From positions 434,001-478,922 of the forward strand of contig NZ_SMNA01000006.1 of assembly GCF_004353825.1 (NCBI RefSeq): 44,922 nucleotides of DNA, read 5' to 3'. Position numbers and translations under genes: made by a program. Shown here one piece after another: positions 14,270 through 44,922 of this stretch. Source of the stretch: Occultella glacieicola. GTDB taxonomy: Bacteria > Actinomycetota > Actinomycetes > Actinomycetales > Beutenbergiaceae. Position 1 is the stretch's first letter, and every line of letters starts with the position of its first letter. The notes below the pieces were generated by a model. It made no database searches. It was not told the origin of the DNA and worked only from the letters and a program-made list of their open reading frames with translations.

Positions 14270-15553
14270 TCAGCCGCCGGTACGGGCGAGGACGCCCTCG
14301 ATCTCCTCGGCGGCGCCGTCCATCGCGGCCTGCGGCTCGGCCTGGCCGAGCAGCACCGACTGGACCGCGGGCTTGAGGACGTTCATGATCTCGGTGCCAC
14401 CGGGGGCCTGCGGGTCGACGATCCCCCGGTCCAGGTACTGCGCCAGTTGGGCGTTCGGCGAGTCCTCCGGGTACAGGTCCGTCACCGACAGCCGCGGGGA
14501 GAGCTGGTCCCGCTCCGGGAGGAACTCCGCGAGGAACGCAGGGCTGGTGACGAACCGGATCCACTCGTGAGCAGCCTCGTTGTCCGCGGAGCCCTCGAAG
14601 AGGGCGTACCCACCGACGTTGCCGTAGCTGGTCGACTCCGTGTTCTCGATCGGCGGGCCCACGACGAGCTGCTCCTCGGTGAGGCCGTACTGGGTCAGCG
14701 AGGCCACCGAGCGGGCGAACAGCATCGCCACCTCACCGCGGGCGATCGGGCTGGTCTCGACCGGCAGGTCGGTGGTGAGCGCGTCCCGCGGCGTGTAGTC
14801 GTTGTCGACGAGGAAACTGATGAAGTCGAGGGCCTCGATCGCCTCCGGACCGTTCACGGTGACCTCACCGTCGGCGTTCAGGACCCGCCCGCCGGAGGCC
14901 CAGAGCAGCGGGTAGAAGCTGCCGTTCAGGGTCATGGAGGGGGCCGCGTCGTACTGGGTGATGTAGTAGCCCTCGTCGGCGAGCATCGGGGCGAGTTCGC
15001 GGACCTCCTCGAACGTCGTCGGGTAGTCCTCCTCGGAGATTCCGACGGCGTCCCACACGTCGCGCACGTAGATCGTGGTCGACATGCCGACCAGGGTGGG
15101 CACCGCGTACAGGGTCCCGTCGACGCTCAGGGTCTCGAGGGCGTTGGGCAGGAAGTCGTCGGAGTCCTCGGCGATGATCGAGGAGACGTCGGTGAAGATG
15201 CCCTGGCTTCCGTAGGAGTAAACGTCCGAGGGTAGGACGTAGGTGACGTCCGGTGTCGTGTTGCCGGCGATGCCGGTCTGGAGCCGCTCGGCCCGACCGT
15301 CCCACGGCACGATCTCCACCGTGACCTCGACGTCCGGGTGCATCTCGGTGAACTCGGCGATCTTGGCGTCCCAGAACTCGCGTTCGGCGTCACCGGCGAT
15401 CGGCGGGTACCACATGGTGACCTCACCGGAGAGCGTCCCGTCGCCGCCGGTCTCGCCACCTCCTCCGCCGGTCTCGTCGTCATCGCCGGAGCTGCAGGCC
15501 GCCAGACCGAACACCGCCGCCAGGCCGGCGGCGATCAGTGTCTTGCTTCTCAT
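14270..15553 (-). CDS. Sugar ABC transporter substrate-binding lipoprotein
   Basis: Lipobox LAAC, PDV motif, DGTLYAVP; adjacent to the permeases. Confidence 0.92.
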   Translation of the reverse strand: MRSKTLIAAGLAAVFGLAACSSGDDDETGGGGGETGGDGTLSGEVTMWYPPIAGDAEREFWDAKIAEFTEMHPDVEVTVEIVPWDGRAERLQTGIAGNTTPDVTYVLPSDVYSYGSQGIFTDVSSIIAEDSDDFLPNALETLSVDGTLYAVPTLVGMSTTIYVRDVWDAVGISEEDYPTTFEEVRELAPMLADEGYYITQYDAAPSMTLNGSFYPLLWASGGRVLNADGEVTVNGPEAIEALDFISFLVDNDYTPRDALTTDLPVETSPIARGEVAMLFARSVASLTQYGLTEEQLVVGPPIENTESTSYGNVGGYALFEGSADNEAAHEWIRFVTSPAFLAEFLPERDQLSPRLSVTDLYPEDSPNAQLAQYLDRGIVDPQAPGGTEIMNVLKPAVQSVLLGQAEPQAAMDGAAEEIEGVLARTGG

Positions 15554-15607
15554 GGGTCATTCCTCATCTCATCGTTGAAATCGGTACTGCTCGTGTTCCC
15601 CGGGGTC

Positions 15608-17224
15608 TCAGTAGCCGACGACCCCCTCCGGCCAGCTGAGTTCGATCCCCTGCTGCACCAACGACTCCTGGAACCGCGCGAGGCGGGCGGGGTCCTTGTG
15701 GACCTCGCGGGGTTCGACGCCGTCCTCGATGCAGGTGGCCGCCAACGCTCCCGCGGCCTCGCCGATGTTCCACTCGACGGGGTGGAGTCGATAGCACCCG
15801 TTGGTGATGTGGGTGGTTCCGATGTTCTTGTTCGCCGGGAGCAGGTTGCGCATCCGTTGCGGGATCAGGGCGCCCAGCGGGATCTGGAACGGACACGAGG
15901 GCACGTCGATGTAGTTGTCGCCGCCGGTCGAGGGGTGCAGGTCGATCCGGTACATCCCGATGCCGACCGAGTCGTGGAACCGTCGCGCGCCGGCACCGCC
16001 GCGCACGGCCATTGAGACGTCGTTCTCGGTCACCGTGGTCAGTGCTCTGATCCGGCGGGACTCCCGGTGGTAGGGAGCCTGGGCCAACCCGTCCACCGTG
16101 CCCATCACCTCGGGCCGCAACCGCAGGCCGGGCCACCCGGTGCCGCCGTCCGGCCGCGGGGCCTCGGTCTGGAGCCAGTACAGCATCGAGAGGCTCAACT
16201 GCCGGGCGTCCCGCAGCCGGGCGGCCGCCACGTCGGCTGGTTGGTTGACCACCGGGGCCTCGAAGTAGTCGATCGAGGGCCAGTTGACGAGCGTGATGTC
16301 GCTGTCGTAGAAGCCTGGTTCGAACAGCTTCCGGGCCGCGATCCGGCGATAGATCCACAGGTTCAGGTCACCGGGATCCTTGCTCTGGTCCGCGTCGATC
16401 GACAGCGGATCCTCGTCGGTGTTCGGCACGAACGTCCGCGGTGCCGCCTCGAGCGTGCGGGGATGCGGCGAGACCAGCCCGAGCAGTGGCCCCCACCAGA
16501 ACTCGGGCGCGACCGCGCGCCACTTCCGGTACTGCTCGGGCTCGTCGATCGTGTGGTCGCCGTCGACGTGATCGACAGCGAAGCACACGCTCAGCGCCTG
16601 CCAGTTGTCCGGCTGTGCCTCCTCGGGCGCACTGGGCTCGCCGGTCTCGTGCCGTGACTCGAAACCGGTGACGTACTCGGTGCCGGTGAGCGGGAGCAGG
16701 TCCCCGGTCTCGGTGGCGTCGAGCACGTACGCGGCGCCGATGCTCAACTCGTCCCCGCCGTCGAGGCGACGGACCCGGACCGAGGTGACGACGTCACCGT
16801 CGACCTCGGCGCCGATCGCGACGGCGGGCTTGACCAGCTGCAACCTCCCGGCCGAGAGCCATGGCGCGAGCATGCCCGTGATCACCGCGGTGCCGACGCG
16901 CGGCTCCGAGCACAGTTTGGACACGGTGCCGGCGCCGGGGTTCAGCAGCGGCTCCCGGCGCGCGGCTTCGGTCAGCGGGAAATGCGCGCGGTAGTACGCC
17001 CGGATGCCGTCGCGCAACCGCCGGTACCGCCTGGTCGCGCCCATCTCCTCGATCCATGGGTGCTCGTCCACCGGGACACCCTGGGAGGTGAGCTGTCCGC
17101 CCAGCCAGTCGTACTCCTCGACCAGGACCACCCGACGCCCCGCCTCGAGCGCGGCCAGCGTGGCGGCTACGCCACCCAGTCCGCCACCGACCACCAGGAC
17201 GTCTGTCGCCAGATCCGCGTTCAC
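15608..17224 (-). CDS. FAD-dependent oxidoreductase (FAD_oxidored-type)
   Basis: VVGGGLGG, LGGQLTSQGV, LDATETGDL, YHRESRR, FQIPLGALIP, YRLHPVEWNIGEAAG. Confidence 0.88.
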   Translation of the reverse strand: MNADLATDVLVVGGGLGGVAATLAALEAGRRVVLVEEYDWLGGQLTSQGVPVDEHPWIEEMGATRRYRRLRDGIRAYYRAHFPLTEAARREPLLNPGAGTVSKLCSEPRVGTAVITGMLAPWLSAGRLQLVKPAVAIGAEVDGDVVTSVRVRRLDGGDELSIGAAYVLDATETGDLLPLTGTEYVTGFESRHETGEPSAPEEAQPDNWQALSVCFAVDHVDGDHTIDEPEQYRKWRAVAPEFWWGPLLGLVSPHPRTLEAAPRTFVPNTDEDPLSIDADQSKDPGDLNLWIYRRIAARKLFEPGFYDSDITLVNWPSIDYFEAPVVNQPADVAAARLRDARQLSLSMLYWLQTEAPRPDGGTGWPGLRLRPEVMGTVDGLAQAPYHRESRRIRALTTVTENDVSMAVRGGAGARRFHDSVGIGMYRIDLHPSTGGDNYIDVPSCPFQIPLGALIPQRMRNLLPANKNIGTTHITNGCYRLHPVEWNIGEAAGALAATCIEDGVEPREVHKDPARLARFQESLVQQGIELSWPEGVVGY

Positions 17225-20875: not shown

Positions 20876-20933
20876 ACCCGCGCACCGGCACCCCTCGACC
20901 CTCAGCCAATCGGACATGGAAGCGATACCAGAG

Positions 20934-23900
20934 ATGAAACGAAGGACACCGACCCACATCGCCCTGGTCGCGGTCGCGGCGCTCGTGGTGAGCGCCCTGC
21001 CCGCGGTGGGCAACACCGTCGAGAACGGCCACACGATCGAGGAGGTCGGGGCACCGATCACCGCGGTCAACATCCGGACCGCGGCCATGGGCGCAATGCC
21101 CGACGGCTCCCCGGTGGTCTACGCCCCGACCTACGGGGAGCCGGCCCGACTGAGCGTCGTCAACGGTGAGACCGGCGAGTTGCTCTCGGTCCACGACCTC
21201 GGTGACAAGACCACCTCCAACTACACCGGCGTGTCCCCGGACGGGTCCGCCTACGCGGCGGGCCAGACTCCCGGTGCCAACCTGTTCCGCTACGACCCGG
21301 CCACCGACGCGGTGACCGATCTCGGCGCGCCGGTGGCCGGCGAGACGAACATCTCGCGGCTGACGTCCTTCGCCGAGGACGGGACGCTGTACTCGGGGAC
21401 GTTCCCGAGCGGGCACGTGTTCAGCTACCACCCGGAGCGGGGCTTCCACGACTTCGGACCGATCGCGGACGGCGAGCAGTACGCGCGGTCCACGGCATTC
21501 GACGGCGACCACACGCTGTACGTCGGCACCGGCACGAACGCCCGGCTGTTCGAGATGGATGTCACCACGGGTGAGCGTACGGAGATCCCCCTGCCCAGCG
21601 AGTATGCCGGGCAGCAGACCTACGTCAACGAGATGTACTACCGGGACGGACTGCTGTTCGCGTTCCTCAGTCCCGCGTACGCCTACATCGTCTACGACAC
21701 GTCCATCGGAGCGTGGCGGGAGTCGCTCACCGATGTCCAGGCGAGCCCGATCTCCGAGGTGGTCGACGGCCGCGTCTACTACGTCAACCGCACCCCCAAC
21801 GACGTGTTCGGCTACGACCTCGCGACCGGCGGGGTCACCCGGGTCACCGAGCTCGACGCGATCTCCCTCAACACCAGCCGCGGCTTCGGCATCCTGGAGC
21901 TCGAGGATCCGCAGTGGCCCGGCACCACCCTGACCGGGATGGGCCTGACCGGACGCATGTGGCACTACAACCTGCAGACGCAGGAGTTCCGCTGGGTGCA
22001 GACCGAGGCCTCCGCAGGCGCCCTGAAGATCGCCGCCCTGGGCATGGCACCCGACAACCAGCTGTACGCCGCCGGCTTCCTGACGCCGAACACCATGGCC
22101 CGGATCGACGTCGACACGCTGGAGCACGAACCGCTCCCCGGCCCCTCCCAGTCCCAGTTCATCGGCACCGTCGAGGTCGAGGGTGCCGAGCCGAGCATGT
22201 ACATCGGCGGGTACTCCGACGCCGGGGTGTGGCGCCACGACCACACCGCCCAGTGGGACTACCCGTACAACCCGATCAGCATCGCTCGCCTGGACTCCCA
22301 CGACCAGGAGCGGGTGCTCGCGATCGTCGAGGCCGGGGACCGCCTCGCCGTGGCGACCCTTGGCCCGAAGGGCACCCTGGGCGGACACCTGAGCATCGTC
22401 GACCCGGTCGACGGCACCATCCCCTACACCGACGAGCCCGTCCCGACCTACGCCGTCGCGTCGGTCCTGCACCGGGAGATCGACGGACGTGACGTTCTCA
22501 TCGGCGGGACCACGAGCAACCAGCTCGGTGTGGAGCATCCCGATCCGGACGCGCGACTGTTCGTCTTCGACCTCGCGACGCTCACCACCGAGTACGTGAC
22601 CGTCCCGCGGGCCGGTGCTTCGGCGATCAGCCAGATCCGCGAGCTCCCCGATGGGCGGATCTGGGCGGTCGCGAACGACTCGACCATCCTGGAGCTCGAC
22701 GTCCGCCACGACGGCGCCGGGTACACGATCGGGACGACCGAGGTGGCGTCGATCTTCGGTGAGCCGCGTGGCGCCGGCGACTGGGCCGGGGCCCGGCTGG
22801 GGCTGCTCGACGAGGACACCCTCGTCGGCAACGCCGGAGGCTGGGTGTACACCGTCCAGGTCGCGACCGGAGCGGTCGAACTGATCACCGAGGGCAGCGA
22901 GGCGACCCCGACCGGCGACGGGCGGTTCTTCTTCGCCCGGGACACCGTCGTGTTCCGGGGCACCCCACAGGGCTGGGTCGCGCCCGACCCGACGGACCCG
23001 ACGGACCCGACGGAACCGACGGAACCGTACAACTACGCCCTCGCCGCGAACGGGGCCTCCGCCACCGCATCGAGCGCCCACGGTGAGTACGGCGCGGCGC
23101 AGACCATCGACGGCGACACCTCCAGCACGGCGAGCCGGTGGGTGAGTGCCGCTGGTGACGACGAGCCATGGCTGGAGGTCACCTTCGCCGAGGAGTCCCC
23201 GATCGACACGGTGAACCTGTACCAGTACCTGAACTACGAGCTCGGTGACTACGACATCTCCGCGCAGGTCGACGGCCAGTGGGTCACGGTCGCGGAGGCA
23301 CGTGGGAACGTCTCACCACGGACGGTCCACGAGTTCGACGGCGTGCTCGCCACGGCGGTGCGGCTGGACGGCGTCTCGAGCTCGGACGGGCGGGTCCGGT
23401 TGTTCGAGCTCGAGGTGACCTGCCGGGCCGGCGGTCTCTGCGGTGGCGACGCACCGGAGTGCCCGGCCGCCCCCCCGGCCACCGGGGTGGCCGTGCGCAG
23501 CCTCGGGGTGCCGGTCACGGAGCTGCAGATGAACGTGTCCGCCACCGGGTACCTGCCGGACGGCCGACCGGTCCTCTATGTCCAGGGCGGCAGTCCGGGC
23601 AACGCGGTGCAGTTCGCCGTCATCGACGCGCTGACCGGTGAGCAGCTGCGCCACCACGCGATCGAGGAGCTCAACGACTCGCTGTCGATGATCTCGACCC
23701 AGGACGGCTCGGTCTACATCCCCGGGTGGGGGCCGGAGGCACTGCTGTTCCGGTACGACGCCGCGACGGACACGATGACCAACCTCGGCCACGCCGTCGT
23801 GGGCGAGTCGCACATCACCCGGATCGTCGAGGCCGAGGATGGCACGCTGTACGGCGGCACGTTCCCGAACGGGCATGTCTTCAGCTACGACCCGAGCACC

Positions 23901-26900
23901 GACGAGTTCACGGACTACGGTCAGGTCGACCCGACCGAGTACTACGCGCGAGCCGTCGCCTACGACGAGGCCGGGAACCTGTACGTCGGCACCGAGGGCA
24001 CCGCCCGGGTGATCCGGCTGGACCTGGACACCGGTGAGCGGACCGAGATCCCGCAGCCGCCGACGATGGCGCCGAACGACTACCGGATCAGCCTGATGGC
24101 CTGGCGCGACGGACTGCTCTTCGCATACTTCGGTGGTTCGCTCGAGTGGCACGTCTACGACCCCAGCGTCGGCGAGTGGGTCGCGCACCTGCCCCGCAGC
24201 GCACCGAGCATGCCGACCGAGGTCTCGGCCGACGGCAAGGTCTACTTCGCCAACACCGCTGAGAACCGGCTGTACTCCTTCGACGTCGCGACCCTCGAGC
24301 TCGCCGATGCCGGGTGGGACCGGGCCGTCAACTACTACCTCGGTGGCGGCGGCATGGGCCTCATCGAGCTCGGACACGAGGACTACCCGGGCGAGTCGAT
24401 CGTCGGCATGGGCCGGCGCGGTGAGCTCTGGCGGTTCAACCTCGGGACCGGCACCGGTGCCGTGGATACCGACGCTCAGATGCCGATGACCCCGATCACG
24501 GTGCGGTCCTTCGGCAGCGGGAACGACGGCGAGGTGTACGTGGGCCTGAGTTTCAACAACGGCAACCTGGTCACCTACGACCCCGACGCCGACGAACTGA
24601 ACGTCCAGTCCGCTTCGTTGTCGGCGCAGGTGCATCAGTACCTGACCACGGACGAGGCGATCTACCTGGGCACCTACACCGGAGCGGTCCTGCGCCGCTA
24701 CGACCCCGACCAGCCCCTCGGCAGCGGGAACCCGGGGGTGGTCTTCAGCCTCAACGACCACAACCAGGACCGGCTCTTCGGCCTCGCGGAGGCCGGTGAC
24801 CGGATCGCCGCCGGCAGCCTCGGCAAGCGCGGTCACCCGAGCGGGCGACTGGTGTTCTTCACCCCGTCGACCGGCGAGGTCGAGGACTTCGGTGAGATCC
24901 TGCCCGGCCACCAGTTGATCTCGATGGCCGTGATCGGCGACACCCTCTACATCGGCACCTCGAACAACACCCCGGGCGCGGACCCGATCGTCGACGAGTC
25001 CGTGATCATCGCCTGGGACCTCACCACGGACACCATCGCGTGGCAGTCCGCCCCGATCCCGGGGCTGTCCACGATCTCGGCGATGGTGCCCCGGGAGGAC
25101 GGCCAGCTCTGGGCCCTGACCGGCGACGGCACCGTGTTCCGGTTCGACCCGCAGACCCGGCAGGTCGAGCAGTCCGTGGAGATCACCGGCGGGGGCAGCG
25201 GCAACCATGGCTACCCCAAGCTCTCGCTTGGCCCTGACGGGCTCCTCTACGGATCCACGGGCGGCGGGATCATCTTCTCGCTCGACCCGTGGACCGGCGC
25301 CTACGAGGTCCTCACGCACGGGAACTATGTGATGCCGCACTCCGACGGGCGGCTGTACTTCGCCCGAGGGTCCGAGGTCTTCCAGGCGACGTTGACCCGG
25401 GGCACCGAGCCCTGGGTCGTGACCCCGGCTCCGGTCACCTTCGACGACCGGGACGGCACCGACGAGGACACGTTCACCGTTCCGGAGGCCACCGGTGTCG
25501 GCTACCGGGTGGACGGCCAGGTCATCGAACCCGGGATCCATCCCGGCTCGGGCGCGGTGACCGTGCGGGCCGTGGCCGCGGACTGCTACCAGCTGGCGGC
25601 GGGCTCGACGACCGAGTGGTCCCACGAGTTCGGCACCGGGGAGGGTGATCCCGACCCGGACCAACCGTACAACTACGCCCTCGCTTCCAACGGGGCGAGC
25701 GCCGAGAGTTCCAGCGAGCTCCGGGACTTCACCGCGTCGAACCTGATCGACGGCGACACCGACGCCGCCGACAGCCGGTGGGTGAGCGCGGCTGAGGACA
25801 CCGATCCCTGGCTGGAGATCACGTTCGCGCAGGAGTCGCCTATCGACACGGTGAGCACCTACCAGCAGCAGAACTACCAGCTGGATGACTACGACATCAC
25901 GGCCCAGGTGGACGGGCAGTGGGTCACGGTCGCCGAGGTCCGTGGGAACGTGGAGATCGGCACCGTGCACCAGTTCGGCGGCGTCCGAGCGACCGCGCTG
26001 CGGTTCGAGGGGTTCACGAGCCCCGACGGCCGGGTGCGGATGTTCGAGGTCGAGGTGACCTGCCAGGTCAGCGATAGCTGCACCGATGACGGCGAGGCCG
26101 ACCCGACCTCGACGACGCTGGCGATCACCGGGGACCCGGTCAGCGGTGCCGACCTCACCCTCACCAGCACCGTCGAACCCGCCGGGGCGGCCGGTGCCGT
26201 CACGTTCCTCGACGGCACCACCGAGTTGGCCACGGTCGACGTCGCCGACGGCGCGGCCTCCACCGTCGTGACGCTCGGCGCCGGCACTCACTCGCTGACG
26301 GCCGCCTTCACGTCCGCAACCGCGGACTGGGCGGCATCGGCCTCGGAGCCGGTCGCCGTCGAGGTATCCCGGTCCGCGGCGACGACCGGGGTCGACCTGT
26401 CCCGCCCCGCGGGCGGCTACGGAACGGCCACGACGGCGACGGTGACCGTCGCCGGGACGTCGGCTCCGCCGTCGGGCGTCGTGGAGATCCGCAACGGCGA
26501 CGACGTGCTCGTCGGCGGCGAGCTGAGCGTGGACGGCCTCGTCGGCACCGCCGAGGTGGAGCTCCCGCGCGATCTGCCGGCCGGCCGGTACCAATTGACC
26601 GCGGTCTATCTCGGTGATGCCGAGGTGACGGACTCGACCAGCGCGGCAGTCGCGTACCGGGTGGTACCGGCGCGCCCCTCGGTGGACATCGACGCCCCGT
26701 CGATGGTGCGCCGCGGGGAGGCCCCCCAGGTCACGATCACCGTGCGTGGTGCCGACGGCGGGCCCGCCCCGACGGGCACGGTGACGATCACCTCCGGGTT
26801 CCGCGTCGTCGAGGTGGTGATGCTCGACGCCGACGGCCGCGCCAGCGTGGAACTGCCGCCGGTCTCGTTCCTGACCCTGGTGACGGCCACGTACGGAGGG

Positions 26901-26951
26901 GACCAGGGCTATCGCCCGGGCCTGGGCATCGACCTGATCCGCGGCTGGTAG
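20934..26951 (+). CDS. ~2005-aa secreted multidomain protein: propeller module, discoidin (F5/8C), propeller module, small beta domain, discoidin, Ig-like (Big_3) repeats
   Basis: Signal peptide; blades DGTLYSGTFPSGHVFSY and DGTLYGGTFPNGHVFSY; discoidin motifs IDGD..SRWVS..PWLE; Ig-like GAVTFLDGTTEL, GTHSLTAAF, LTAVYLGD. Confidence 0.85.
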   Translation: MKRRTPTHIALVAVAALVVSALPAVGNTVENGHTIEEVGAPITAVNIRTAAMGAMPDGSPVVYAPTYGEPARLSVVNGETGELLSVHDLGDKTTSNYTGVSPDGSAYAAGQTPGANLFRYDPATDAVTDLGAPVAGETNISRLTSFAEDGTLYSGTFPSGHVFSYHPERGFHDFGPIADGEQYARSTAFDGDHTLYVGTGTNARLFEMDVTTGERTEIPLPSEYAGQQTYVNEMYYRDGLLFAFLSPAYAYIVYDTSIGAWRESLTDVQASPISEVVDGRVYYVNRTPNDVFGYDLATGGVTRVTELDAISLNTSRGFGILELEDPQWPGTTLTGMGLTGRMWHYNLQTQEFRWVQTEASAGALKIAALGMAPDNQLYAAGFLTPNTMARIDVDTLEHEPLPGPSQSQFIGTVEVEGAEPSMYIGGYSDAGVWRHDHTAQWDYPYNPISIARLDSHDQERVLAIVEAGDRLAVATLGPKGTLGGHLSIVDPVDGTIPYTDEPVPTYAVASVLHREIDGRDVLIGGTTSNQLGVEHPDPDARLFVFDLATLTTEYVTVPRAGASAISQIRELPDGRIWAVANDSTILELDVRHDGAGYTIGTTEVASIFGEPRGAGDWAGARLGLLDEDTLVGNAGGWVYTVQVATGAVELITEGSEATPTGDGRFFFARDTVVFRGTPQGWVAPDPTDPTDPTEPTEPYNYALAANGASATASSAHGEYGAAQTIDGDTSSTASRWVSAAGDDEPWLEVTFAEESPIDTVNLYQYLNYELGDYDISAQVDGQWVTVAEARGNVSPRTVHEFDGVLATAVRLDGVSSSDGRVRLFELEVTCRAGGLCGGDAPECPAAPPATGVAVRSLGVPVTELQMNVSATGYLPDGRPVLYVQGGSPGNAVQFAVIDALTGEQLRHHAIEELNDSLSMISTQDGSVYIPGWGPEALLFRYDAATDTMTNLGHAVVGESHITRIVEAEDGTLYGGTFPNGHVFSYDPSTDEFTDYGQVDPTEYYARAVAYDEAGNLYVGTEGTARVIRLDLDTGERTEIPQPPTMAPNDYRISLMAWRDGLLFAYFGGSLEWHVYDPSVGEWVAHLPRSAPSMPTEVSADGKVYFANTAENRLYSFDVATLELADAGWDRAVNYYLGGGGMGLIELGHEDYPGESIVGMGRRGELWRFNLGTGTGAVDTDAQMPMTPITVRSFGSGNDGEVYVGLSFNNGNLVTYDPDADELNVQSASLSAQVHQYLTTDEAIYLGTYTGAVLRRYDPDQPLGSGNPGVVFSLNDHNQDRLFGLAEAGDRIAAGSLGKRGHPSGRLVFFTPSTGEVEDFGEILPGHQLISMAVIGDTLYIGTSNNTPGADPIVDESVIIAWDLTTDTIAWQSAPIPGLSTISAMVPREDGQLWALTGDGTVFRFDPQTRQVEQSVEITGGGSGNHGYPKLSLGPDGLLYGSTGGGIIFSLDPWTGAYEVLTHGNYVMPHSDGRLYFARGSEVFQATLTRGTEPWVVTPAPVTFDDRDGTDEDTFTVPEATGVGYRVDGQVIEPGIHPGSGAVTVRAVAADCYQLAAGSTTEWSHEFGTGEGDPDPDQPYNYALASNGASAESSSELRDFTASNLIDGDTDAADSRWVSAAEDTDPWLEITFAQESPIDTVSTYQQQNYQLDDYDITAQVDGQWVTVAEVRGNVEIGTVHQFGGVRATALRFEGFTSPDGRVRMFEVEVTCQVSDSCTDDGEADPTSTTLAITGDPVSGADLTLTSTVEPAGAAGAVTFLDGTTELATVDVADGAASTVVTLGAGTHSLTAAFTSATADWAASASEPVAVEVSRSAATTGVDLSRPAGGYGTATTATVTVAGTSAPPSGVVEIRNGDDVLVGGELSVDGLVGTAEVELPRDLPAGRYQLTAVYLGDAEVTDSTSAAVAYRVVPARPSVDIDAPSMVRRGEAPQVTITVRGADGGPAPTGTVTITSGFRVVEVVMLDADGRASVELPPVSFLTLVTATYGGDQGYRPGLGIDLIRGW
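22986..23027 (+). repeat. 9-bp tandem repeat encoding a (D/E)PT linker
   Basis: GACCCGACG x3, GAACCGACG, GAACCG. Confidence 0.85.
23023..23424 (+). repeat. Discoidin domain copy 1 (intragenic direct repeat)
   Basis: Ungapped colinear match to 25663-26064; both ends are offset by exactly 2640 bp. Confidence 0.88.
25663..26064 (+). repeat. Discoidin domain copy 2 (intragenic direct repeat)
   Basis: Starts AACCGTACAACTACGCCCTCGC and ends GAGGTGACCTGCC, like copy 1. Confidence 0.88.
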
Positions 26952-41187: not shown

Positions 41188-41222
41188 GTCGGGCTGACAG
41201 GATTTGAACCTGCGACCCCTTG
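41188..41222 (-). tRNA. 3' fragment only of tRNA-Pro(GGG): att-site duplication, not an intact tRNA
   Basis: Minus strand CAAGGGGTCGCAGGTTCAAATCCTGTCAGCCCGAC gives the anticodon-stem 3' strand, T-arm and acceptor 3' strand; the 5' half is absent. Isotype assigned from the recalled actinobacterial tRNA-Pro(GGG) sequence. Confidence 0.82.
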
Positions 41223-41445: not shown

Positions 41446-44400
41446 TCAGGATGAGCACCGAACCTCGGTGCGAGCGAGCCCGCCGACCGCATTGTGGAAG
41501 AAGACCAAGAACTCTCGTACTTGCCCGGCCGAGATAGTCCCCGCACGGAGGTCCTCTCGAAGCCGTTGGACGCTCAATCCGGGCTGCACGATGACGATCT
41601 TGGAGTTGAGGTGTGGGGCTCGTGCAGCGATCGACTCATCCGGACGCTCGGGAAACAGGCCACAGAGGGCAAGGAGGTCTTCTCGGTCCCCTGCCAGAAC
41701 GGTGAGACGTGGTGACTCGGCACCAGTCAATCGGCGTCCGATTCGGTTCCACAGCTGTCGGTCTGTGAGATGACGTCGACTCTTCGCGGCCTGCTGCGTG
41801 ACCACTTCCATATCCGTGACCCGCGCCCCTGGCGTTGAGTTAGACGATGGCTTCGAGTGCCAGAGCTCGATCGACATCCGGCCACCGAGATTCCTTTGGA
41901 TGACGACGTGATCCGCGATCTCGCCTCCTCCATCGTTGTGCAACACCCATCTCGATGCGCCGGGCTCGGGTGTCACTTCCACGAGAGTCTCCTGGACCCA
42001 TTCGTGAATCGAGTCGGTTCGATTTGGTCGAGGTGTTTCTCTCGTGATGTCAACGCTTTCCCAGCTACTCGGCACGAGATCAACGTCAGGAAGAAATGAT
42101 CCCGTTCGGGGCGGTTGAAAGGTGACAGGCCCCATCGTGCTCCGCCCATCGCCGAAATATATGAGGGGCGGATGCGCTTCGAACAGCAGATTGAACGTCG
42201 TTGAGTTGCCCATTCCGCGGTGGAGCTCTTCCGACCCGCCCAGGGTAGTGAATTTGCCGGTCACCGTCATCTCGGCAGTCCACACATCAATGCCCTCGTC
42301 CCGCGGGTCATAAACCCGGAGAAAGACTTGGCTCTGCGTGGCCTCCCGGTCTGCCAGCGGCGCAATCTCCAGTTCCTCGATCGGACACCCGTCCGGGAGC
42401 GTGTATGAGGCCCCCAGAAGTGCTGGGTTCAATTCCACAGCAATGACTGGAGGATGGAACTCGTCGGTTCTCGCACCCTTCGAGACGTTGGGTAACAGTG
42501 GGCCCGATTCGGTGGGTCTCGGGAACCAATAGCGGCGGGCGAGATCGACCGCGAAGGCTTCGTAGTCGCGCAGTCCTAAGTATCGAGTCTCCCAGTACTT
42601 TGATTTGTTCACAGCAAGACCTGCCGTGGTTGCCTGGCCTGAGTCGACTCGAACTTGGGCCATCGCGTGGCCAAGCCCTCGTCCGTTCGTGTCGGCTTCA
42701 CGTAGGCCTCGATCGATCCCACTTCCTGCGAACGTTGCATAGGCTGGCGTGCCGGGCACGGCCGCGAAAGTGTTTCGTACGCCCACCGAGGAGACTGATA
42801 GACGCTCCACGCTGTCAAATGCCTCCTGGAGGAACCCAGGATTGCCGTTCCTCAGCATATTCGATGGATCGAGAATCTCTCGGATCGCGTTGAGGAGTCC
42901 TAGATCTTGCGCGTTGAGTAGCAGGAGATGAGAGCGGTTGATGTCTGCGCTCTTCTGCCAGCTCACAACGGCTAGCTCGAAGACGCTTCGGGTGAGTTCG
43001 GTGCCTGAGTACCATTTGGGCTTCTCAGTCTCAGACGTAATGATCACCAACTGTGTTGCGTGTTGGTTGAGGCCAGCGTATGCAATGTGCCGCCCCAGAA
43101 GGCGTTGACCTGCCTGCAGACCGTCCGGCACTCCTTCTCCAAACCCGGGGTCGAACGGAACCCCACGCGGCACCTCCAGCAGCACTGCGCGCGTCAGCGG
43201 CTTGACGGCCGCCAGGTCGAAGCTCTCCGGCGGATCGTCGAACGCGCTGAGGTACTCCCGGTCTCGCCGCTCACGCTCAATCTCCTCATCGATCAGGGTG
43301 GGGAGTATCGTCGCCCAGTCAGCGTCTTCGCGGTACAGCTCGCGTAGCGCCCCCTGAAGAACTGGGTAGACATCTTCGTCATGGACGGTGACCAGGACGG
43401 ACTGCTGCGGGTACTCCGCATTCGCGCGTGCGAGGCGCCCAATGAACTGCATAGTGGCCGGTGTCGACTTGTGCTTATCGTGATAGCCAACGATCCGCAG
43501 GTTTGGAACATTCACCCCCTCGCCCAGCATGTCCACTGCGACAACCGCGCGGATCCTGCCCGCGCGCCAACCGCTGAGAATATCCTCGCGATCTGCAATC
43601 GATGTCGAGCCGATGAGTACCTGGGCGTCTACTCCCTTCCTTGCATAGATCGCCTGGACGACTCCAGCACGCGCGACGGTGTTCACACGTATCAGAGCGA
43701 CGCTCGTCGCATGTTCAGCGAGGGACAACTGGCTGGCAACCTCCGCTGCGATCGCCTCATCCTTTGCCTCGTCCGTGATTGGCGACCCGAGTTCAAGTAC
43801 CCGCGGAAGCACCGAGTGGAAGATACCGTCGGCAATTGCCGCGCGCAGCGGAAAGTGATAGGCATGCGTTCCCGGTAGAAGCTTTCCGTCAGCGCGGCGC
43901 GGCGTCGCCGTGAGCAGGACCGCTCGAGCGCTAGGAAAGTGGTCGAGGATTGCCCGCCACGTTTTAGCGGGCGCGTGATGGGCTTCGTCGATGATGAGGA
44001 GATCGAAGAGTCCTGGATCAGGAAGGTCCGCTTCATCCATGTGGTCTGGACTGATCGAGTTGGGGAGCGCTACGACAACGTCGACTTGCTGGAGACGAGA
44101 CCAGTCAATGTTGCGTCCTTTCACCTCCTCAACGATCGGTCCAGGACTCGCACGATTGAGTGCTCCCACGGCCAGGAGATCCTGTTGACTGCGAAAAGCC
44201 GCGCTCAACTGACCCCTAAGCTCCGTACTTGGCACTACAACGAGCGTCCTCTTAGCCCTTGCTAAATACGGAAGCGCAGTCGCTATCGCAGTCTTTCCCG
44301 ATCCGGTGGGGATCGAGACAAGCAATCTTTCTTCTGGTTCCAGCGTCCATTGACTTGAGATCGCGGCTAGTGCACCGACCTGCGGGCGTCGCCAGGCCGG

Positions 44401-44466
44401 ATCACCGGGCTTTCGCATCAATGCGAAATCGACGTAGTCACTCTCGTAGTGCGACACGCGAAGCAT
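41446..44466 (-). CDS. SF2 DEAD/DEAH-box (Res-like) helicase with long C-terminal region ending in a PD-(D/E)XK-like nuclease motif; candidate defence protein
   Basis: PTGSGKT, IIDEAHH, LTATP, DMLGEGVNVP, MQFIGRLAR; C-terminal GEIADHV...IELWHSK...QQAAKS. ATG 44466 with AAGGTG RBS (GTG 44472 alternative). Confidence 0.85.
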   Translation of the reverse strand: MLRVSHYESDYVDFALMRKPGDPAWRRPQVGALAAISSQWTLEPEERLLVSIPTGSGKTAIATALPYLARAKRTLVVVPSTELRGQLSAAFRSQQDLLAVGALNRASPGPIVEEVKGRNIDWSRLQQVDVVVALPNSISPDHMDEADLPDPGLFDLLIIDEAHHAPAKTWRAILDHFPSARAVLLTATPRRADGKLLPGTHAYHFPLRAAIADGIFHSVLPRVLELGSPITDEAKDEAIAAEVASQLSLAEHATSVALIRVNTVARAGVVQAIYARKGVDAQVLIGSTSIADREDILSGWRAGRIRAVVAVDMLGEGVNVPNLRIVGYHDKHKSTPATMQFIGRLARANAEYPQQSVLVTVHDEDVYPVLQGALRELYREDADWATILPTLIDEEIERERRDREYLSAFDDPPESFDLAAVKPLTRAVLLEVPRGVPFDPGFGEGVPDGLQAGQRLLGRHIAYAGLNQHATQLVIITSETEKPKWYSGTELTRSVFELAVVSWQKSADINRSHLLLLNAQDLGLLNAIREILDPSNMLRNGNPGFLQEAFDSVERLSVSSVGVRNTFAAVPGTPAYATFAGSGIDRGLREADTNGRGLGHAMAQVRVDSGQATTAGLAVNKSKYWETRYLGLRDYEAFAVDLARRYWFPRPTESGPLLPNVSKGARTDEFHPPVIAVELNPALLGASYTLPDGCPIEELEIAPLADREATQSQVFLRVYDPRDEGIDVWTAEMTVTGKFTTLGGSEELHRGMGNSTTFNLLFEAHPPLIYFGDGRSTMGPVTFQPPRTGSFLPDVDLVPSSWESVDITRETPRPNRTDSIHEWVQETLVEVTPEPGASRWVLHNDGGGEIADHVVIQRNLGGRMSIELWHSKPSSNSTPGARVTDMEVVTQQAAKSRRHLTDRQLWNRIGRRLTGAESPRLTVLAGDREDLLALCGLFPERPDESIAARAPHLNSKIVIVQPGLSVQRLREDLRAGTISAGQVREFLVFFHNAVGGLARTEVRCSS

Positions 44467-44801
44467 GGGCACACCTTAGCGCGACCGCGCCCTGGCCCAG
44501 CGTTGCCATCGCGCGAGTGATACTGAATCGTACTGAGGCACCGCGCGTGTCTTCAGGCGCTGCTCGCGGTGGCGTTGGCGACCCGCAGAAGAGTGCCGAT
44601 GGCCGGTGCTCTGATGAGCTCCTTCTTTCCTCCGTATGACTTCGGGCGCGATGAGGTCTTCCAGGAAGTTGTGCGGCGCGATCGCTAGTGCGTGGCTGAC
44701 GGATTCATCCACCCAGCGTCGACGCACCAGACGGCCGGATAAGATGCGCGTCCTCGATGACGGGCGCACCGGAGAGTTGAGCGGTACGCCCTCCGACAAC
44801 C

Positions 44802-44922
44802 TGGGGACTGCTGCACGGGTAGGTGGCATCTGATCTGGCTTGCCCGGGAGGGCGGCCTGGAAGGATGTTGCTGTGCCAAAGCCCTACCCGAGTGAGTTTC
44901 GTGACGACGTTGTCCGCGTCGC
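44802..44922 (+). mobile_element. IS3-family insertion sequence, left end (partial)
   Basis: Terminal-IR-like TGGGGACTGCTGCACGGGTAGGTGGCA followed by RBS GGAAGGA and the OrfA start; exact end uncertain by about 2 bp. Confidence 0.75.
44873..44922 (+). CDS. IS3-family transposase OrfA, N-terminus (truncated by the window)
   Basis: GTG-initiated MPKPYPSEFRDDVVRVA, the typical Y..EF+ start of IS3 OrfA. Confidence 0.8.
   Translation, partial: MPKPYPSEFRDDVVRV

Follow-up and report, generated by a model that had tools for sequence, protein, structure and literature searches.

Near the right end of a 44,922-nucleotide stretch of the Occultella glacieicola genome (hereafter the window; contig NZ_SMNA01000006.1, positions 434,001–478,922), a single minus-strand gene (41446..44466) encodes a 1,006-residue protein that joins a superfamily 2 (SF2) helicase/translocase motor, an RdgC-like domain predicted to dimerize, a beta-rich domain and a C-terminal domain with a predicted PD-(D/E)XK nuclease fold. 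We refer to it as the helicase-clamp-nuclease gene. A defence role of some kind is quite likely for this protein, and we lean slightly towards the specific reading in which it is a single-gene anti-phage or anti-plasmid DNA-destruction enzyme, acting as a structure-triggered dimer that combines motor, clamp and nucleases. Helicase-nuclease defence is a known kind; the order of motor, RdgC-like clamp, beta domain and H-x-K nuclease was not found in the libraries and literature searched. PADLOC 2.0, NCBIfam and Pfam yield no fit to a named system and match the generic motor only, in agreement with an original prediction that had read a helicase-nuclease fusion from the sequence without being able to assign it.

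Motor, predicted clamp and predicted nuclease in one polypeptide

The open reading frame (ORF) at 41446-44472 is intact and spans 1,008 residues from an in-frame GTG at 44472, which adds two residues, or 1,006 from the ATG at 44466, the start from which residues are numbered here. A Microbacterium algeriense protein (P0002) of 98% amino-acid identity has the same 1,006-residue length, and the two genes differ at 47 synonymous and 18 non-synonymous codons (pN/pS 0.13), none of which touches a motif residue. Codon usage is foreign to the host, with a GC content at third codon positions (GC3) of 0.655 compared with 0.906 ± 0.051 in 153 host control ORFs, the lowest of which reaches 0.68. The gene had also been credited with its own −10 element, TACGAT (44527..44532, minus strand). 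Those letters are present but a promoter role is unsupported: a sigma-70 scan returned no site upstream of the gene, none at 44532-44527 and one chance-level site within the gene, and the position reads TACGGT in the 97.5%-identical M. algeriense copy.

The motor (43282..44388, minus strand; residues ~27–395) bears out the prediction of intact SF2 motifs in the first ~380 residues. Motifs Q, I, II, III, V and VI are all present over two RecA-like domains, as Q29, PTGSGKT 53–59 (Walker A, 44290-44310), DEAHH 160–164 (43975-43989), TATP 186–189, EG 316–317 and QFIGRLAR 340–347 (motif VI, 43426-43449). Pfam matches to ResIII (E 7.5e-26), DEAD and Helicase_C are confined to the first 351 residues, and the best PADLOC 2.0 and NCBIfam scores, 54 and 45.5 bits, likewise fall on the motor alone. 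Its nearest relatives are the motors of XPB, RadD, SauUSI and HsdR, with FANCM also among the closest.

The remainder of the protein had been described as an unrecognized middle region followed by a nuclease. Sequence libraries are indeed empty for residues 415–1006, with no real Pfam match among 59 members, no PDB sequence match and, in the Atlas, only matches below 0.9 that lack a family assignment and a single Helicase_C cluster; predicted models, by contrast, reveal an RdgC-like fold within the middle region. Fold matches were obtained for three of the four domains, from models with pLDDT 90.7 and 92.5. Residues ~422–651 (42514..43203, minus strand) adopt the two-lobed alpha/beta fold of the RdgC/Iml3 (CENP-L)/RexA group in the predicted model, at 5–8% identity to its known members; RdgC, lambda RexA and Iml3-Chl4 (CENP-L/N) are stand-alone DNA-binding proteins, whereas here the fold is fused to a motor and a putative nuclease. 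The beta-rich domain that follows (42097..42504, minus strand; residues ~655–790) has no clear fold match and is a candidate sensing or specificity domain.

Structure prediction supports a homodimer formed by residues 415–664. Two copies of this segment score 0.75, compared with 0.01 for the best of three controls. Of proteins with solved structures, 20 of 30 pairs attain that mark, against 1 of 23 single chains; the runs for this segment share at least 66% of contacts, with pLDDT of at least 85. This pass may nevertheless reflect the model's memory of RdgC-like dimers. The predicted interface contains W485, Y576 and G581, conserved at 92–100%, and shows modestly higher conservation than the remaining domain (0.46 vs 0.39, p 0.04), with 8 of 44 interface positions conserved at 75% or more compared with 16 of 206 elsewhere. 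According to PMC11077077, RdgC, RexA and Iml3-Chl4 are dimers that bind DNA non-specifically, RdgC doing so through a central pore, and RexA employs the RdgC fold in phage exclusion. By analogy, the RdgC-like domain would bind DNA as a clamp. The segment is not net basic in the Occultella protein; the family retains R577, H600 and K623.

At the C-terminus (41449..42096, minus strand; residues ~791–1006), the predicted model supports a PD-(D/E)XK fold with an invariant H-x-K, the variant originally proposed, and its closest match is the Hachiman nuclease HamA. The motif string on which that proposal was based, NDGGGEIADHV...IELWHSK...DMEVVTQQAAKS, lies at 41779-41937. Candidate catalytic residues are E849 and D852 (41911-41922), H870-x-K872 (41851-41859), and D885 and Q892 (41791-41814). 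In a family whose loci were fetched with patterns drawn from the helicase part only, E849, D852, H870, K872 and Q892 occur in 63 of 63 members and in all 150 further representatives of 50%-identity clusters; across the family, E849 and D885 show almost no variation. Measured against the canonical D...(D/E)-x-K signature, D852 and K872 are thus invariant, and position 870 is histidine in every one of these sequences. H870 would sit where the E or D of E-x-K is normally placed, with E849, D852 and D885 providing acidic ligands, and the domain is probably an active nuclease. Four stand-alone TIGR04141 proteins (L106–L109) likewise end in a nuclease-like D...H-x-K...Q motif and may share an origin with the C-terminal half; hhalign gives a probability of 0.1 for the pair, against an alignment of only four sequences.

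These parts suggest a working model. The SF2 ATPase motor would track along DNA while the predicted RdgC-like domains pair and grip the duplex, and the two predicted HamA-like nuclease domains would cut when the motor reaches an abnormal DNA structure. The trigger could be a fork, a DNA end or a junction with single-stranded DNA arising during replication of the invader. A structural trigger of this type is proposed by analogy to Hachiman, to Hna and to type III Druantia (10.64898/2026.05.13.724313 for Druantia), and protection against phage would be the expected outcome.

A mobile island and a defence-rich family

The window runs to the end of contig C20, which breaks off inside an insertion sequence (left end 44804..44922, plus strand; 3-bp target duplication at 44801-44803), whose other end terminates host contig C13. 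From its orfA/orfB sequence we take this element to be IS3-like. Because the segment at 41188..41222 (minus strand) matches the 3′ part of tRNA-Pro(GGG) on contig C13 (34 of 35 bases; C13:35079-35113), we assign this tRNA fragment as the attR at the right end of the island, and the helicase-clamp-nuclease gene is therefore the last of the island in the direction of transcription. The original placement of the gene in a tRNA island beside an att site thus holds in that the att site is real, but ARAGORN finds no tRNA gene in the window and the gene is last, not first, as transcribed.

The M. algeriense locus (L002) is contiguous across the position of the insertion sequence, has the same attR arrangement and provides the uninterrupted order: tRNA-Pro(GGG), tyrosine integrase, serine recombinase, hamA, hamB, helicase-clamp-nuclease gene, two unassigned ORFs and attR. 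The Occultella island reads tRNA-Pro, recombinase remnant, Hachiman, insertion sequence, helicase-clamp-nuclease gene and attR, with no methyltransferase, in agreement with the original observation that none is adjacent. The M. algeriense DNA is 98.5% identical to C13:35273-39993 and 97.5% identical to C20:478803-475223, whereas its flanks match the host genome weakly (best 73%), which argues that the island recently moved between different hosts. On C13 the upstream serine recombinase is shortened to 164 residues (525 in L002) and the tyrosine integrase of L002 is missing. The two L002 ORFs between the gene and attR (366 and 418 residues; L002:13334-14431 and 14934-16187) are absent in Occultella and are candidate island cargo, without a Pfam or PADLOC match.

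Past the insertion sequence and the contig end, upstream of the gene, the same tRNA-Pro island contains an intact hamA-hamB pair (L081:5954-9726 on C13), whose DNA is 98.5% identical to that of its M. algeriense counterpart and which matches the PADLOC Hachiman models at 302 bits (HamA) and 1022 bits (HamB). The description of the gene as stand-alone is accordingly only partly right: it belongs to a single-gene family without a conserved partner, but Hachiman shares its island.

The family is large and its distribution is patchy. A GTDB scan confirmed at least 482 relatives among at least 599 pattern matches and returned 80 loci; judged by record title, the matches listed fall in Actinomycetota, Bacillota, Pseudomonadota, Bacteroidota, Chloroflexota, Acidobacteriota, Planctomycetota and other phyla. 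At E<=1e-30, a profile of residues 415–1006 retrieves 1,036 representatives of 50%-identity clusters, a number that grows to 2,628 when the threshold is relaxed to E<=1e-3. Full-length members are mostly 950–1,030 residues long; among the best 150 representatives, 105 reach at least 900 residues, with Walker A in 100 and DEAHH in 102 of these, and the shorter ones may be fragments. Two loci carry longer frames, of 1,319 and 1,121 residues (L042:8957-12913 and L004:9659-13021), which may contain N-terminal extensions or just early start calls. The gene is absent from all 35 other genomes sampled in the host's family and is carried by 5 of 400 genomes of its phylum and by 16 of 5,426 Escherichia coli genomes; it appears in 42 plasmid records, two of them haloarchaeal, and in none of 50,697 phage records.

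Association of the family with defence genes is strong, as had been anticipated. With PADLOC (E<=1e-45), we searched 420 ORFs lying no more than 5 kb from the gene at 74 loci. Of 425 ORFs selected, five had been set aside as fragments of a split copy of the gene or as overlapping one; six loci were also excluded, having no neighbour ORF (L001, L025, L062), no main ORF assigned (L054, L074) or only a piece of the same gene as neighbour (L067). Defence matches occur at 39 of 74 loci (15/21 + 8/23 + 13/23 + 3/7), a count that excludes three generic matches (L022 mad3, L037 HEAT-ARM, L040 PprDinG), rises to 42 when they are included and falls to 35 without four less specific ones (L014, L018, L061, L076). 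In the control, drawn from one genome (130 of 153 ORFs, 17 of 20 regions) and compared without a formal test, 3 of 17 ten-kilobase host regions have matches, and each of these is to a generic model of a kinase, an ABC-ATPase or a peptidase. The neighbouring systems are varied and comprise Hachiman, Lamassu, AbiE, type I and type II restriction–modification (RM), DISARM, Wadjet, BREX, Gabija, CBASS, Tiamat, pAgo and DRT. Clustering of ORFs across loci revealed no conserved partner gene and no neighbour family in more than nine loci, the commonest being serine recombinases (nine loci, including the host C13 locus), HsdR (eight) and tyrosine integrases (eight).

Three inspected chromosomal copies in E. 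coli lie 6–12 bp 3′ of hsdS in a tRNA-Leu island, presumably leuX. A 421-residue hypothetical gene (L118:15435-16700) follows the homologue in all four E. coli regions opened; it has no PADLOC or Pfam match and may be a separate defence candidate.

Two further observations concern the rest of the genome. A second copy of the insertion sequence, whose own 3-bp duplication pairs contig C1 with C3, splits another lower-GC region (L082:4209-5852 and L083:7211-8473, at the contig ends). This region encodes a NACHT protein together with an EcoRI-type methyltransferase and is likely to be a second island of defence genes. Elsewhere in the window, 20916-26951 (plus strand) encodes a 2,011-residue protein that combines F5/8 type C and bacterial Ig-like domains; it looks like an ordinary carbohydrate-binding protein destined for secretion.

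Known systems and competing explanations

In outline the family resembles both Hna and Hachiman, but it is a member of neither. Hna had been offered as a likeness and is indeed a single-gene enzyme with N-terminal SF2 motifs and a C-terminal PD-(D/E)XK nuclease that dimerizes, as the present protein is predicted to do; however, PMC13381803 describes Hna as an 845-residue, DinG/XPD-like helicase with an arch domain that dimerizes via HEL1. Because of this DinG/XPD-like character, the analogy is one of kind only. The present protein lacks a DinG/XPD-type helicase with an arch domain and instead combines a compact RadD/XPB-like core with about 400 additional residues, the RdgC-like domain among them, and is predicted to dimerize through that domain. 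Hachiman comprises two genes, and its HamB is a Ski2-like helicase (10.1101/2024.02.29.582594), whereas here one polypeptide carries an XPB/RadD-like motor, an H-x-K in place of the Hachiman E-x-K, and RdgC-like and beta-rich inserts; neither a DUF1837 HamA nor a Ski2-like HamB is recognizable in it. The PADLOC HamB model gives the protein 18 bits, against 1022 bits for the adjoining true HamB; no HamA model is among the best 25 PADLOC matches, and Pfam HamA is found in none of 59 C-terminal halves.

A helicase-RdgC-nuclease fusion is undescribed in the literature searched, including passages of 10.1101/2025.01.08.631726, PMC13381803 and PMC11077077. 'RdgC' is absent from the searched portions of 10.1101/2025.09.30.679545, 10.1101/2025.01.08.631966 and PMC13434031, as is 'helicase' from that of the DefensePredictor main text; PMC13069673 excludes single-gene systems. 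The family has probably not been named elsewhere. We tentatively suggest, at a level short of an even chance, that it comprises unnamed cross-phylum one-gene immune enzymes in which an RdgC-type clamp dimer encircles the duplex, two XPB/RadD-like motors drive it and two HamA-like H-x-K nucleases cut invader DNA.

The strongest competitor, though itself unlikely, is a modification-dependent (type IV), ATP-driven restriction enzyme in the manner of SauUSI, in which the clamp or the beta-rich domain reads a modified base and the motor brings the nucleases. The motor matches SauUSI (7clg) at 75 bits, one of its best sequence matches in the PDB, a weak PADLOC mREase_IV match covers the helicase part, SauUSI too is a single polypeptide, and the absence of a methyltransferase, which had been taken to indicate modification-independent defence, fits a type IV enzyme equally, which requires no cognate methyltransferase. 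The position of the E. coli copies behind hsdS, and the lack of a fold assignment for residues 655–790, also leave room for this role. SauUSI, however, carries a PLD nuclease at its N-terminus together with an SRA reader, whereas the predicted nuclease here has a PD-(D/E)XK fold and is C-terminal, and residues 415–1006 gave no match to SRA, PUA, winged helix or PLD, in a comparison that barely covered residues 655–790. The non-specific DNA binding of RdgC-fold proteins (PMC11077077) also argues against a base-reading clamp.

Less probable still is a mobile repair or recombination enzyme, a fused fork-processing helicase-nuclease like XPB-Bax1, Hef or RadD with an RdgC-like regulator, carried as an island passenger without a defence role. 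XPB, RadD and FANCM are the closest motors, RdgC works in recombination and replication restart (PMC11077077), and integrases, recombinases and transposases are common neighbours. The patchy distribution, the E. coli location in the leuX island following a type I RM operon, the lack of a conserved repair partner and the unrelated defence systems adjoining about half of the loci all argue otherwise.

It is very doubtful that the protein is the restriction subunit of a sequence-specific system, either type III Res-like or a type I RM accessory, with its methyltransferase elsewhere. Type III Res, like XPB-Bax1, Hef and RadD, shares the ResIII/DEAD/Helicase_C motor and helicase-nuclease logic, a relative is annotated by one source as 'type III restriction enzyme res subunit', and 7 of 74 loci have a methyltransferase within 5 kb. 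ResIII, however, matches the generic motor only; the family has no Mod partner, is not a core gene and differs from all of these enzymes in its C-terminal half. The island lacks a methyltransferase, and the seven are type I, type II or HmaB, so that a type III methyltransferase occurs at 0 of 74 loci and homologues are not tied to a Mod methylase.

A third component of the adjoining Hachiman system, suggested by the HamA-like nuclease fold and by the gene following hamA-hamB on the same strand in Occultella and M. algeriense, is scarcely credible: Hachiman lies within 5 kb at only 1 of 74 loci (L002), a gap of ~590 bp, in Occultella the site of the insertion sequence, separates the gene from hamB, and HamA (PF08878, E<=1e-8, a model weak on the host HamA at E 2.7e-9) is found in 0 of 400 other genomes of a phylum sample whose tallies match the one holding the five gene carriers.

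The family spans many bacterial phyla and haloarchaeal plasmids, and the inspected copies are annotated generically, as DEAD/DEAH helicases only. E. coli itself offers a full-length homologue (WP_028132769.1), which scores 706 bits against the family profile, and the proposal of a single-gene DNA-destruction enzyme is therefore testable with standard coliphages. If correct, it would add a widespread defence system and a histidine-variant PD-(D/E)XK active site, and would open a route to asking what RdgC-fold clamps do in immunity, tying the RexA/RdgC fold and its still unexplained part in phage exclusion to an enzymatic activity that can be measured.
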